Shown here piece by piece: positions 2,437 to 5,565 of a stretch of DNA of 5,565 nucleotides. How positions within the stretch are numbered: the stretch's first letter is position 1; every line of letters begins with the position of its first letter. The notes beneath the pieces are model-generated. The model was given only the letters and a program-made list of their open reading frames with translations. It had not been told where the DNA came from and did no database searches. Source of the DNA: a virus. The translations under genes and the position numbers were made by a program. Location: the UHGV virus genome UHGV-0382441, one strand, 5' to 3'.

Positions 2437-3645
2437 CTACCATTTTGTCGTTACGGTTTTATCTACTCCTTTGAAATTCATCTCCGGATCGTAGTGTTGT
2501 GTTACTGTCGATGAGTTCATGGGGGGAGTATTGTTCATCTTTCTTTCTGTGTATTCCCTGATCGCTTTTCCTGTTTTTCCTCCGATTACCATATTTCCTA
2601 CTACTTGCGCGAGTTTGAGGATCGTGTTTGCTATTTCGGTCCAGTATTGGAGTTCTCGCAGGTCTGCGGTTGCTTCTTCGGTTCTCTTTTTTGCTTCGAG
2701 TACTTTTGCTTCTGCCTTTTGGGTTTCGCCTGCTGCGTAGAAGTAAGCTGCTTGAGCCATTGCACTGCATGCGTCCGCGTTTATTTTTTTGATTTCTGCC
2801 GATAGTTTTTCGTCTGCATATATGCTTTCCAGAGTTTTGATTGCCGCTGTTCCTTCGAGGATTTGTTTTTCGGCTTTCATCATATCGCCCTGGAATGATT
2901 CCTCTCCGAATACGATTTTGCCGAATTTGTCATCTTCTATCTCGAAGTACTTCGGTATTTCGACTTCTTTGCCGTCGATTGTTGTTTTCTCTGTAGGCTG
3001 CCATTTTACCATCTGGTCCCATAGTTGATTTGCTGTGCTGATAAAGCCTTTCCAGCCTTCGAACATTTCCTGTTTTACCTGCCATATTCTCTTTTCGATT
3101 ATTGACGTGGTTTCTTCTTTGTTTTTGCCCGCTTCTGCTTTGAGTGCTTCTGCTTGCGTATTGAGCAGGTTGATTTCTGCCTCGTTCTTTCGTTCGCTCA
3201 TCCGCACCTGTCGTAATGACATCAATGCCTGTAGTTGCATATTCGGATCGGCTGCTGATCCTGCTCCTGTAGCTCCTGTTGCACCTATTGGAGCACCTGT
3301 TGTCGAACCGGCTCCTCCGCCTCCGGCGCCTCCTTTGCCATACATCAGACCGGGAGACAATCCCGCTGCATCCATTTGCGCGACTTGATTGGCGTAACTT
3401 TGGTCTTGATAGGTCCTGTTGTATAACACTTGCTGTCTTTCGAATGCATTCTCCGCCGCCATTTCTCCGTATTTGTAATTTATTTTGGCTGCGTTTTCTA
3501 CCATCTCTTTCTGCTGTCTTATCTGCCTCCTTCTGCCTATGCCTAGCGTGTTGAGGATTCCTGACACATTGCCTACAATTCCCGAGAGAGGGTTCATAAT
3601 ATCCTCTCCTTTTCCGAGTAGGTCTAATAGTTTTTTGAAGTTCAT
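2437..3645 (-). CDS. VP2: Minor capsid / DNA pilot protein VP2 (402 aa) with a Gly/Ala-rich low-complexity tract.
   Basis: It sits between VP1 and VP4, as in microviral genomes. Residues 103-134 are a Gly/Ala/Thr-rich stretch (GKGGAGGGGAGSTTGAPIGATGATGAGSAADP). The C-terminal half is helical and rich in Glu, Lys and Ala (…EAEINLLNTQAEALKAEAGKNKEE…), typical of VP2/H-like pilot proteins. ATG at 3645-3643, TAG at 2439-2437. Confidence 0.65.
   Translation of the reverse strand: MNFKKLLDLLGKGEDIMNPLSGIVGNVSGILNTLGIGRRRQIRQQKEMVENAAKINYKYGEMAAENAFERQQVLYNRTYQDQSYANQVAQMDAAGLSPGLMYGKGGAGGGGAGSTTGAPIGATGATGAGSAADPNMQLQALMSLRQVRMSERKNEAEINLLNTQAEALKAEAGKNKEETTSIIEKRIWQVKQEMFEGWKGFISTANQLWDQMVKWQPTEKTTIDGKEVEIPKYFEIEDDKFGKIVFGEESFQGDMMKAEKQILEGTAAIKTLESIYADEKLSAEIKKINADACSAMAQAAYFYAAGETQKAEAKVLEAKKRTEEATADLRELQYWTEIANTILKLAQVVGNMVIGGKTGKAIREYTERKMNNTPPMNSSTVTQHYDPEMNFKGVDKTVTTKW
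3244..3339 (-). repeat. Low-complexity Gly/Ala-coding tract inside VP2 (GGN/GCN codon repeats).
   Basis: The '+' strand reads cctgctcctgtagctcctgttgcacctattggagcacctgttgtcgaaccggctcctccgcctccggcgcctcc. This encodes GKGGAGGGGAGSTTGAPIGATGATGAGSAADP on the virion strand. Confidence 0.7.
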
Positions 3646-3740
3646 TTTCGTTCTTTTTTTAAAAAGAATTTATACCTATAGTTCTTGTTATATATGTATA
3701 AATGTCTACCGTTCTGTGCCACATATATTTACGAGGGTTA
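3646..3740 (-). promoter_or_regulatory. AT-rich non-coding leader upstream of VP2. Candidate promoter region with an imperfect inverted repeat.
   Basis: About 75% A+T. atatatgt at about 3692-3699 and acatatat at 3721-3728 form an imperfect inverted repeat. Virion-strand TATAAC / TATAAA-like hexamers are present. There is no clear Shine-Dalgarno motif before the VP2 ATG (…AAAAAAAGAACGAAA-ATG). Confidence 0.3.
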
Positions 3741-3771
3741 AAAGAGGGGGGCGGAAATATCCCCCCTCTTT
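3741..3771. terminator. Perfect 11-bp GC-rich hairpin (aaagagggggg / cggaaatat loop / cccccctcttt) in the only sizeable intergenic region. Candidate intrinsic terminator and/or replication-origin stem-loop.
   Basis: 3741-3751 is the exact reverse complement of 3761-3771, with a 9-nt loop. On the virion strand the stem is followed by TCTTTT-AACC. On the '+' strand it is followed by GAGTTTTGG. It lies about 30 nt downstream of the ORF107 stop and about 95 nt upstream of the VP2 start. Confidence 0.5.
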
Positions 3772-3800
3772 GAGTTTTGGTAGATCTTTATACGACTGCT

Positions 3801-4124
3801 TTAGCTTTTTTCGGGATCGGTTTTTTCTTCTGTCCCGAAATTTTTCGCAGCCTCGGTTTCGCCCTTGTTTTTTGCGATTTGGCTTGCTGTGCTTTGGTTG
3901 ATTTTATCCATTGCGTCTATCGCTACTTCGAATCGATCTGTTCTTATGTCGTATTCGGGTTGTACTCCATCCTTTTTTTCCGTGTAGATTGTCGGGAATA
4001 CTCCATCCTCCATGTTACTGGTTTCTCCGCTGATTATCTTTCTTAGTTTCACTTCCCTCGGTTCTGCTTCGTAGGTAAGGTCTGGATTATTGATACATCC
4101 TTTTCTATTTTTTGCTGTTTTCAT
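3801..4124 (-). CDS. Hypothetical acidic protein (107 aa) between VP1 and VP2. It may be a scaffolding-like protein.
   Basis: ATG at 4124-4122, four nt after the VP1 TAA (TAA-CACC-ATG). This suggests translational coupling with the capsid gene. It is Glu/Asp-rich. I recognise no motif, so any function is inferred from position alone. Confidence 0.45.
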   Translation of the reverse strand: MKTAKNRKGCINNPDLTYEAEPREVKLRKIISGETSNMEDGVFPTIYTEKKDGVQPEYDIRTDRFEVAIDAMDKINQSTASQIAKNKGETEAAKNFGTEEKTDPEKS

Positions 4125-4128
4125 GGTG

Positions 4129-5565
4129 TTATAAATTTGGAATTTGTTTTGCTGACATTACTCGACGTGCTGTTACGTCGAACGCTACTTGTACCCAGAA
4201 GTTTTGCGCACTTAGTCTCGACTCTGCGAATATGCTGTTGTATATCGTAGGGTCGATGTATGTCGTTGCGTTTTTAATCGAGCCGTCTTTATTTTCTTCG
4301 TATATTCTGTTCAAGCACATGAATGCTAAAGGCATTCCCGCGGCGAATTCGCCGTACGTTTCGTTTACGTCTGTCGTGTATTCGATCCATGAAGGTTGTT
4401 TTCCTAATGATTGGTACGTGTGTGTGTAGTTTTCAGTGGTTTCTGTGCTCCATGCAGCTGCTTCTTCCGCTATCAGTTCTTGAAATCCGATTGCGTCCAA
4501 TGTCGGTTTATGGAAGTCATCCATATTTTGCAGTCTTGTCCACCATTTGTTGCCTTGGCTGTAATCGATTCGAGGTGTGATCGATCCTAAGGCCATGATC
4601 ATGCTTGGTTCTGTGCATTTGATCTTCAAGCCTCTTCCGGATTTGTACATGGTTGCGACTCCTCGGCCGGCAAGTGTTCCTAATGGTTCTTCATCTGTCG
4701 CTGAGTTCGATACGATTTCGTCGAATGCGATTTCGCTTTGCATTCCGCCGCAGAAGATAGGAGATTCAGGCAGCGTTGTGCTTCTGATCCCGTACGTTGC
4801 CTCTCTCCACGCCTGATAGGTGCCGTCTGTAATAGCTACGCGATTCAGCATGTTGAAAATTTTCTTTTGAAGGATCAGAGCATCCATCGTAAGTTTTCCA
4901 TCGCTCACATCTACCGCTGTGATTGCGTTGATCCCTCCGGTCGTTCCGTCGATCCATTCGGTGTTCAGCCAGTTGTTGAACCTGTCGCTGAGATATGTTT
5001 TTATCGCCAACCCCGCTTGTGAGAACCATGCAAATGAGCTGGTATATGTTTGTGTGCGATCATGATTCGGCAGGTCTAAAGGCGCTGTCGCTGCCCTATA
5101 TGGCATTTTTGTATCGTCTATTACATATGCCGAGGAGCTGGGTGCCGCTAAGATTGCAGTTCGTACGTCGTCGATGGTTTTTAACGGGAATGGTGTTAGT
5201 TTGATCCTCTGGTTGTCCGGCATTGTTATTGCGTAAAGCCCGGTTTTATCTTCATTGTATGCAATTTTGATTTTCTTTTTGACCTTGTACATGTAAATGT
5301 TGGTTGCCTTCCTCAGGTTCTTCGGTTCCCTGAGTCCCGGCGCCTCCGGATCGGTTCGGTCGAATACAAAGCTGTCTCCGAGTTTTGTTAATTTGTTGGT
5401 TTTTGCTGTAGGGTTATTCGGATCATTCGTTAAGAATTGTATCTCGCCGACTGTGTCGGGTGAGACGTTTTCCTCGAATTCCAGTTTGATGTATTGCGGT
5501 TTTTCAGTAGTTGGATCGATTATGCATGTTTGACTTACGTTATTCTGCCATGATGCCCTCCAAGC
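4129..5565 (-). CDS. VP1: Major capsid protein VP1, C-terminal part. The frame is open from 5565 down to the TAA at 4131-4129. Total VP1 is about 681 aa when joined to 1..609.
   Basis: The track ORF 4129..5292 (387 aa) has a typical Microviridae VP1 C-terminus (…LGTLAGRGVATMYKSG…WSTET…FWVQVAFDVTARRVMSAKQIPNL). I translated upstream of the internal Met at 5292 and found no stop all the way to 5565. That frame is in phase with base 5565, and the 1..609 part ends in phase at base 1. Confidence 0.85.
   Translation of the reverse strand, partial: AWRASWQNNVSQTCIIDPTTEKPQYIKLEFEENVSPDTVGEIQFLTNDPNNPTAKTNKLTKLGDSFVFDRTDPEAPGLREPKNLRKATNIYMYKVKKKIKIAYNEDKTGLYAITMPDNQRIKLTPFPLKTIDDVRTAILAAPSSSAYVIDDTKMPYRAATAPLDLPNHDRTQTYTSSFAWFSQAGLAIKTYLSDRFNNWLNTEWIDGTTGGINAITAVDVSDGKLTMDALILQKKIFNMLNRVAITDGTYQAWREATYGIRSTTLPESPIFCGGMQSEIAFDEIVSNSATDEEPLGTLAGRGVATMYKSGRGLKIKCTEPSMIMALGSITPRIDYSQGNKWWTRLQNMDDFHKPTLDAIGFQELIAEEAAAWSTETTENYTHTYQSLGKQPSWIEYTTDVNETYGEFAAGMPLAFMCLNRIYEENKDGSIKNATTYIDPTIYNSIFAESRLSAQNFWVQVAFDVTARRVMSAKQIPNL

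Follow-up and report, generated by a model that had tools for sequence, protein, structure and literature searches.

What does a densely packed virus genome keep in its one stretch of non-coding DNA? The window analysed here—the whole 5,565-nucleotide (nt) sequence of the virus genome UHGV-0382441—is a complete, circular, Alpavirinae-like microvirus genome with every gene on the minus strand, and the stretch in question is the 155-nt region between ORF107 and the pilot protein gene VP2. To our knowledge, an experimentally defined origin and transcription map exist, among microviruses, only for the phiX174-like phages and not for the microviruses that prevail in gut and environmental viromes. 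An earlier note on this DNA had singled out the region, with its perfect GC hairpin, as a candidate origin, terminator and promoter hub. Its broadest idea, that control signals of the genome sit in this region, is borne out by conserved cis-acting elements in a layout kept across related genomes. The explanation that jointly accounts best for this layout, and to which we give about an even chance, is a single control module of a compact one-directional circular genome, whose separable elements would be a transcription terminator or attenuator (hairpin H1), a replication origin (a 27-nt block) and a leader of VP2 (a palindrome followed by CGAAA). Since all genes are on the minus strand, that strand is called the coding strand below. 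The elements are as follows.

3646-3800, minus strand: intergenic region between ORF107 and VP2, the sole sizeable non-coding stretch of the circular genome
3779-3793 and 3696-3710, minus strand: arms of an outer stem (15 nt, 87% complementary) that encloses H1
3741-3771, minus strand: hairpin H1, with arms 3741-3751 and 3761-3771 and a 9-nt loop (3752-3760)
3738-3743, minus strand: T-tract at and after the 3′ arm of H1 (CUCUUUU-AA)
3716-3730, minus strand: hypervariable spacer between H1 and the block, holding one arm of the second repeat noted earlier
3684-3710, plus strand (motif): conserved 27-nt block, reading GGTAGACATTTATACATATATAACAAG on the minus strand (3710 to 3684) and CTTGTTATATATGTATAAATGTCTACC on the plus strand
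3668-3703, plus strand: AT-rich hairpin, with 13-nt arms (3668-3680 and 3691-3703; 92% complementary) and a 10-nt loop (3681-3690)
3651-3668, minus strand: palindrome H3, TTCTTTTT / AAAAAGAA, built of a clamp, a T-run, an A-run and the complementary clamp
3646-3650, minus strand: CGAAA leader, directly before the VP2 ATG (3645-3643)

We located the homologous region in 130 loci, representing 127 distinct contexts and drawn from the close clade, distant clades, prophages and 80 further diverse gut, freshwater and marine genomes. Common to all 130 is one order of elements on the coding strand, 5′ to 3′: a GC hairpin, the 27-nt block, a T-run/A-run palindrome, CGAAAA and the VP2 ATG. About 35 close relatives have the region at the same position and at a length of 154-157 nt. 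Its description as the only real non-coding region was confirmed by the circular map of open reading frames (ORFs), given that the candidate second gap (959-1129) turned out to be the conserved gene ORF56; the accompanying statement that the remaining gaps measure 1-4 nt applies to most of them, but not to the 38 nt at 2399-2436. The 155 nt fold markedly better than expected as RNA (z = -4.3) and, on either strand, as DNA (z about -3.7), and two of the four short-range inverted repeats of the genome fall inside them. A plus-strand ORF spanning the region (3485-3901) was rejected: the loop of H1 ranges from 9 to 12 nt among close relatives, which excludes coding across the hairpin. Among the Rfam 15 covariance models, the sole match was a chance-level snoRNA elsewhere in the window (E = 0.83).

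The perfect 11-base-pair (bp) hairpin with a 9-nt loop exists exactly where it had been placed. Its arms, AAAGAGGGGGG (3741-3751) and CCCCCCTCTTT (3761-3771), are 11 nt long and 100% complementary, seven of the pairs being G-C, and it starts 29 nt past the ORF107 stop codon. No other perfect hairpin of at least 11 bp (loop 3-12 nt) occurs in the genome, and none of 300 shuffled genomes had one; as coding-strand RNA, H1 folds with -19.9 kcal/mol (z = -3.6). The T residues that had been seen beyond the stem on both strands are likewise there (minus strand, TTTT-AA; plus strand, TTTGAGTTTTG). Over 25 unique hairpins of this kind, the six nucleotides following the last G-C pair are 61% T, compared with 20% genome-wide, and 22 of the 25 have at least three T, while A upstream of these stems is barely enriched.

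How well the stem is conserved depends on the distance of the relatives. Within the close clade it is essentially invariant around a loop that varies in sequence and length (ATATTTCCG, ATAATTCCG, TATTTTCTC, TCGATTCCGC, GTGACCCCA); other clades (VP1 39-59% identical) have unrelated GC stems at the same place, e.g. CCCCCCGC/GCGGGGGG or AGGTCGGGT/ATCCGACCT, and 33 contexts lack the upstream hairpin altogether. In many independent lineages the stem takes the form of an A-run plus G5-7, paired with C5-7 plus a T-run. Where the upstream hairpin is missing, a GC stem—typically AAGCGGTAC ... GTACCGCTT and then TTT—encloses the block instead. The two arrangements never coincide (both, 0; upstream only, 35; enclosing only, 33; neither, 23; Fisher p = 6e-10, with kinship ignored). 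The enclosing stem shows compensatory variants (GTGGTAC/GTACCAC, AGCAGTAC/GTACTGCT), with 88% of cells paired, four pairs changed on both sides and a covariation score reached by none of 500 shuffles. In relatives with an enclosing stem (e.g. L221 and L243; block -10 to +60), we also observed that its 3′ arm, GTACCGCTTT, shares CGCTTT with the 5′ arm of the palindrome (CGCTTT/AAAGCG), so that enclosing stem and T/A palindrome are mutually exclusive; the succession AAAGCG ... CGCTTT ... AAAGCG in these genomes resembles an attenuator-like switch.

Non-Watson-Crick cells on the coding strand are G.T in 22 cases and A.C in four, and the coding strand pairs better than its complement in 13 of the 25 unique upstream hairpins, equally well in seven and worse in five, arguing that the fold matters in the coding sense. 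The free energy of the whole region does not differ between coding strand and complement over all 127 contexts; outside the close clade the coding strand is weakly favoured (59 vs 31, p = 0.006, kinship ignored). A terminator scan of the genome returned seven terminator-like sites, all on the non-coding, T-rich strand, which leaves the coding strand with H1 as its sole terminator-like candidate; H1 was missed because its loop has 9 nt (limit 8) and fewer than five of eight tail bases are T. An identical hairpin, AAAGAGGGGGG-N9-CCCCCCTCTTT, lies between convergent genes at 1078-1108 of an unrelated 4.9-kilobase viral contig that is apparently not a microvirus (L059), a position typical of a bidirectional terminator.

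Taken together, H1 is most likely an intrinsic terminator or attenuator and not an origin, as judged from its lineage-specific sequence, variable loop, best pairing in the coding sense, threefold T-run enrichment and the enclosing stem that substitutes for it. It combines a stable GC-rich stem, a U-tract 3′ of the stem (four U, short) and a position after the last gene of the presumed unit. The suggestion that H1 resembles a terminator of the VP1-ORF107 transcript is thereby strengthened, backed by the T enrichment, the tolerance of G.T pairs in the coding sense only and the interchangeability with an enclosing stem that ends in a T-run. Acting in the RNA, H1 and its T-tract would end or thin out transcription between the capsid module (VP1-ORF107) and the low-copy pilot gene VP2. 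Taken alone, H1 is ordinary. Its closest parallels are the leaky intrinsic intergenic terminators TJ, TF, TG and TH of phiX174, the last of which overlaps promoter pA so that TH-pA resets transcription (bioRxiv 10.1101/2020.03.05.979765). Like these, H1 is a GC hairpin with a T-tract that follows structural genes in a one-directional genome and precedes a low-copy pilot gene, and read-through would likewise tune stoichiometry; unlike phiX174, with its four terminators and its E. coli host, the window has one predicted site, a Bacteroidales host and no recognisable overlapping promoter.

If H1 is not the origin, where might replication start? The better candidate lies 30 nt downstream of H1, in the AT-rich block and its small hairpin. 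The block is gapless in the 130 loci and keeps one orientation relative to the genes throughout. On the coding strand it follows the pattern [G/A]GTA[C/G][G/A]C-N11-(T/A)T(A/T)(A/T)(A/T/C)(C/G)AA(G/C), with the consensus GGTACGCATsTrTTCTTATATATCAAG, and 21 nt of it (TTTATACATATATAACAAGAA) are invariant in 33 close genomes, the second-longest invariant run of the genome. Read as its reverse complement, the consensus becomes CTTGATATATAAGAACAGATGCGTACC and carries CTTG(A/T)TAT, the core of the phiX174 nick site. Aligned as CTTGATATATAAGAACA to the phiX174 origin core CTTGATAT-TAATAACA, it agrees at 15 of 17 positions with one gap, a result equalled by five of 5000 composition-preserving shuffles; L066 reads ACTTGATATAAAT where phiX174 has ACTTGATATTAAT, and nine of 5000 shuffles do as well. 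The annotated phiX174 origin is at 4306. The antisense strand has CTTG[ATG]T at a fixed block position in 78 of 91 lineage contexts, and CTTG was not found on the coding strand of the block. At 3684-3691 the plus strand of the window reads CTTGTTAT, with one core mismatch; the lineage consensus there is CTTGATAT.

In the window, the motif is also displayed structurally: the loop of the AT-rich hairpin, GTTCTTGTTA (3681-3690, plus strand), holds the nick-like motif and resembles the gokushovirus loops TTCTTGAT and ATTACTTGTTATA. This hairpin is moderately conserved in the close clade, where an 8-bp core (ATTTATAC/GTATAAAT) shows G.T changes and 2-nt bulges; in relatives with the enclosing stem, the loop reads TACTTGATAT. 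The AT-rich tract that had been pointed out beyond H1 thus does contain an origin-like element, although the inverted repeat named there is not the conserved one. That repeat (3690-3697/3721-3728) is real, a perfect 8-nt pair, but its arm 3721-3728 is hypervariable and its changes are uncompensated; better supported are the pairings 3668-3680/3691-3703 (13 nt, 92%) and 3696-3710/3779-3793 (15 nt, 87%). The latter is the outer stem, in which the first part of the intergenic region pairs with the block's 5′ half. It shows compensatory differences between lineages (GTATAAA/TTTATAC vs GTATAATC/GATTATAC) and one uncompensated change (TCTACC to TCAACC) in eight close relatives.

A comparable arrangement emerged from 12 gokushovirus genomes, in each of which we scanned the five strongest hairpins. 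Eight of them have a strong intergenic hairpin with (T)(A/T)CTTG(A/T)T in its loop, read on the coding strand; on the antisense strand none has it.

511-550, coding-strand motif: hairpin of SpV4 (L069)
2903-2940, coding-strand motif: hairpin of Chp2 (L270)
3295-3334, coding-strand motif: hairpin of phiMH2K (L068)
about 4641, 4619, 1994, 2652 and 2595, coding-strand motif: hairpins of the metagenomic gokushoviruses L273, L274, L275, L276 and L277, respectively

The SpV4 hairpin, TGGGGCATAT-ATTACTTGTTATA-ATATGCCCCA (z = -5.2), has a loop nearly identical to CTTGTTATATATG of the window; the Chp2 hairpin reads CTAGCGTATAACAG-tctacttgat-CTGTTATACGCTAG and that of phiMH2K AGTTCGGCTAC-ggaccctacttgttgtaa-GTAGCCGAACT. 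Applied to 83 genomes of the window's lineage, the same scan found the motif in top-hairpin loops 25 times antisense and once on the coding strand. These gokushovirus loop hairpins are candidates for the viral-strand origin of the Gokushovirinae, and we know of no published description of them. The window shares with the gokushoviruses a strong intergenic stem with the phiX174 nick motif in its loop, and differs from them (coding strand in 8 of 12) in the antisense motif of its lineage and in a longer loop that runs into conserved sequence.

By its conservation, its motif match and the placement of that motif in a hairpin loop in both the window and the gokushoviruses, the block is probably the recognition and nick region of Rep (VP4), that is, a rolling-circle origin, at which we infer cleavage. 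VP4 would bind and nick the block (3684-3710) to start rolling-circle replication, with the nick predicted, from the phiX174 analogy, between G3687 and T3688 of the plus strand. The viral-strand origin of phiX174 is a 30-nt element, CAACTTG^ATATTAATAACACTATAGACCAC, nicked by protein A. The two are alike as elements of about 27-30 nt that diverged relatives conserve, with a CTTG(A/T)TAT core, an AT-rich stretch and a GC-richer end, and the Rep of the window resembles the protein A system in its HUH motif and two tyrosines (YIIKY). In contrast to the phiX174 origin, which lies inside the Rep gene, the block is intergenic (ORF107-VP2), about 1.3 kilobases from VP4, and its motif is on the gene-complementary strand and, in the window and many relatives, in a hairpin loop. 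Among the compared genomes, the block is absent from phiX174, phiMH2K and SpV4, and a literature search for its sequence and for origins of microviruses other than phiX found nothing relevant. A scan of the collection with the pattern CGGTACGCA-N11-T-N3-CAAG was discarded, as it gave mostly chance matches in large contigs, with only two microviruses among 120 hits.

Downstream of the block, after 10-14 variable nucleotides, the palindrome begins. Palindromes of the H3 type occur in 126 of the 127 contexts, and their clamps covary (CGC/GCG, TTC/GAA, GAT/ATC, GTCG/CGAC, TGC/GCA); they are listed as unique stems, as run lengths vary and shift the alignment. CGAAAA(A/T) follows H3 in most genomes, with the VP2 ATG 5-9 nt beyond, and no Shine-Dalgarno sequence was found in the leader (3646-3650) before that ATG. 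Palindrome and CGAAA form a conserved leader before the VP2 start that may act in translation or as a DNA element. On the other side of the block, the spacer 3716-3730 changes among close relatives at five positions, nearly always by transitions; a small covarying hairpin considered there was rejected, with no consistent pairing register found among these genomes.

The strand on which the motif lies may have a consequence for the virion. Rolling-circle replication displaces and packages the strand that has been nicked, as established for phiX174; should the motif be the place of the nick, the lineage would package the strand complementary to its mRNAs. More than 100 Alpavirinae-like genomes (gut, freshwater and marine, including Bacteroidales prophages) would then nick, displace and package the antisense strand and be negative-sense single-stranded DNA (ssDNA) viruses, in contrast to phiX174 and the gokushoviruses, a tentative proposal that we think possible but somewhat doubtful. 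Base composition has a bearing on it. The coding strand is A-rich and T-poor in 82 of 82 lineage genomes (L035-L066, L190-L269; mean A 43%, T 20%), and at its four-fold degenerate sites A reaches 48-55% and T 6-12%. The antisense strand is thus T-rich like the packaged strand of phiX174 (T 57-65%), SpV4, Chp1, Chp2 and most gokushoviruses. In Dysgonomonas host genes it is the coding strand that is rich in T, opposite to the skew of the lineage. Base skew is, however, not decisive, since phiMH2K has an A-rich coding strand and carries the motif on that same strand, which weakens skew as a predictor of the packaged strand. The coding-sense pairing bias of the hairpins fits a terminator role at the RNA level and is silent on the packaged strand.

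Several observations weigh against this combination of terminator and origin. On the side of H1, the T-tract of the window is short (four T), with three of them pairing with upstream A's; the L036-type clade has a GC hairpin without a T-run; and 23 contexts have neither strong hairpin at the thresholds used. On the side of the block, the window's own version (CTTGTTATATATG) does not match the phiX174 origin significantly (3009 of 5000 shuffles), so the case for an origin rests on the lineage consensus and on the SpV4-like loops, and the gokushovirus hairpins are themselves only presumed origins. The motif is on the strand opposite to that expected for a positive-sense microvirus, and in many lineages the block lies outside any hairpin. 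Finally, the longest invariant run in the 33 close genomes is not in the block but comprises 26 nt at the 3′ end of VP1 (4136-4161), leaving room for an origin embedded in coding sequence. This invariance may stem from a conserved C-terminus (VMSAKQIPN) combined with A-ending codons. The same VP1 stretch has a 94% megablast match to a distant GenBank microvirus.

Could the GC hairpin nevertheless be the origin itself, nicked by Rep in its loop? A perfect palindrome could be extruded to form a cruciform, and hairpin loops are where many HUH Rep proteins cut, but the loops of H1 differ among genomes with Rep 80-91% identical, neither loop nor stem holds a CTTG-type motif, stems are unrelated between clades and 33 lineages do without such a hairpin; with a lineage-specific stem, a variable loop and whole lineages lacking it, this part of the earlier note was not upheld, and we consider the idea highly improbable. 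Another conceivable role of H1 is in starting the complementary strand. Together with the outer stem it would fold in virion ssDNA, free of single-stranded-DNA-binding protein, and recruit the host's primase, PriA or RNA polymerase. Both DNA strands fold strongly (z about -3.7), and each lineage keeps exactly one strong GC hairpin beside or around the conserved single-stranded block. The n′ site of phiX174 and the origin of G4 are complementary-strand start sites in the F-G intergenic region. H1 likewise is intergenic and follows the capsid module, and a similar tentative reading has been given to conserved hairpins between genes in other microvirus clades, namely the reekeekee- and roodoodooviruses (PMC9865509). 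Chp1, too, has an annotated "hairpin-like structure h1" between VP1 and VP2; this and the reekeekee- and roodoodoovirus hairpins are like the window in their intergenic place near a capsid gene and in their compensatory changes, and unlike it in their unrelated sequences and in having no adjacent conserved block reported. Start site and terminator would be compatible in one element. Yet the strong T enrichment 3′ of the coding-strand stem points to transcription and would be superfluous for priming, the identical hairpin in L059 stands between convergent genes of an unrelated contig, and the G.T bias would favour the wrong strand if the antisense strand is packaged. We therefore regard a complementary-strand origin as unlikely. 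A single non-coding region that combines a terminator hairpin, minus-strand priming hairpins and a plus-strand nick site is known from f1/M13, which differ from the window virus in family and Rep, in hairpins that act on the packaged plus strand and in the inclusion of a packaging signal.

The block, in turn, might serve transcription: with the palindrome it would be the promoter of the VP2-VP4 unit, H1 the terminator of the preceding unit and the pair a reset of the TH-pA kind known from phiX174, while the origin would lie elsewhere, e.g. inside a gene. At least one promoter is required in a one-directional circular genome, whose sole non-coding stretch this is; the block, which precedes the first gene past the hairpin by 36-50 nt, has two conserved halves at a constant distance of 11 nt and contains TATAAC and TATATA-like hexamers, and a signal for the host RNA polymerase would explain conservation across many phage lineages. 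The promoter hub suggested earlier nevertheless found no footing in consensus scans. A sigma-70 scan gave eight sites genome-wide, where 9.8 were expected, and none in 3646-3800; the spacing between TAGACA and TATAAC, 10 nt, is below the sigma-70 requirement; and the Bacteroidetes (-7/-33) scan found neither TAnnTTTG nor TTTG in the region, the sole coding-strand TAnnTTTG being inside VP4. A promoter also leaves the match to the phiX174 and gokushovirus nick motif unexplained, and we hold this account to be improbable. Next to negligible is the chance that the region is a dif-like XerC/D attachment site. Alpavirinae proviruses are flanked by dif-like sites, some with a second, inverted one (PMC3091885), and the region is AT-rich and full of inverted repeats; but the prophages L063 and L064 run small ORFs-VP1-ORF107-[region]-VP2-VP4, with the junction after VP4 and, in L063, the region intact in the middle, and the intergenic region of the window has no CATAA-N6-TTATG-like core. 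On the strength of these junctions and of the absent core, attP/dif identity was rejected. The Dysgonomonas prophage (L063) is itself flanked by dif-like direct repeats, AATAGTAATTAT(G/A)TAAC, at about 2666-2692 and 8671-8697, next to the host genes MeaB/ROK at one end and Usp/GyrA at the other, in keeping with the proposal that Alpavirinae integrate by XerC/D. In the window's clade the corresponding place, VP4/ORF116, has no gap, so this clade may be strictly lytic.

Thus—with H1 read as terminator or attenuator and the block as origin—the analysis offers a concrete layout for a whole lineage (terminator hairpin, 27-nt origin-like block, palindrome and VP2 leader), and adds a predicted position of the nick as well as a matching origin candidate in gokushoviruses. 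So far undescribed, it seems, are the block kept throughout the lineage, its kinship to the phiX174/gokushovirus nick motif and its inverted orientation. Were antisense packaging true, the opposite strand would be packaged in a major group of ssDNA phages regarded as "positive-sense", with consequences for the reading of strand-specific virome data, the launching of synthetic genomes and the interpretation of mutational skews in such phages. In practice, the block can also be used to set where assembled microvirus genomes start and how they are oriented.

The genes around the region, with identities assigned from PHROGs and Pfam, follow the order VP1, ORF107, the 155-nt gap, VP2, VP4, ORF116, ORF56 and ORF114.

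609 to 1, wrapping to 5565 to 4129, minus strand: VP1, 681 amino acids, PHROG major head protein
4124-3801, minus strand: ORF107, from the ORF map
3645-2437, minus strand: VP2 pilot protein, from the ORF map with PHROGs/Pfam
2398-1487, minus strand: VP4 Rep, Pfam PF23343, with HLHGII and YIIKY motifs

No close relative was found in GenBank, where the best VP1 matches are 60-63% identical and belong to unclassified gut Microviridae, including Alpavirinae-like Parabacteroides phages; megablast against GenBank phages gave two matches only, of about 46 nt each and both within VP1. In IMG/VR, VP1 is 80-89% identical in about 35 genomes and 39-61% identical in several further clades. Integrated relatives in a Dysgonomonas scaffold (L063) and a Bacteroides metagenome-assembled genome (L064) identify the hosts as Bacteroidales. 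A 5673-nt scaffold in an Acinetobacter lwoffii assembly (L062, NZ_JACWEU010000076.1) is a complete microvirus of the window's gut clade, with VP1 83-85% identical and the same intergenic region; it is probably a contaminant and not evidence of a host.

The 171-nt stretch 959-1129 is filled by ORF56 (56 amino acids, minus strand), a real gene by its 84-98% amino acid identity in relatives and its hydrophobic helix (IAVIAAAIGAAAAVI). It is better conserved than its neighbours ORF116 (55-72%) and ORF114, and its features suggest a small membrane or lysis protein. ORF56 and ORF114 overlap by about 25 nt in relatives. At 908-987, spanning the 3′ end of ORF56 and the 5′ end of ORF114, the window has a 39-nt tandem duplication (2.1 copies, 97% identical), which encodes the repeated peptide YQQQQKSSNM(N/D)KK within an in-frame extension upstream of the ORF114 ATG.

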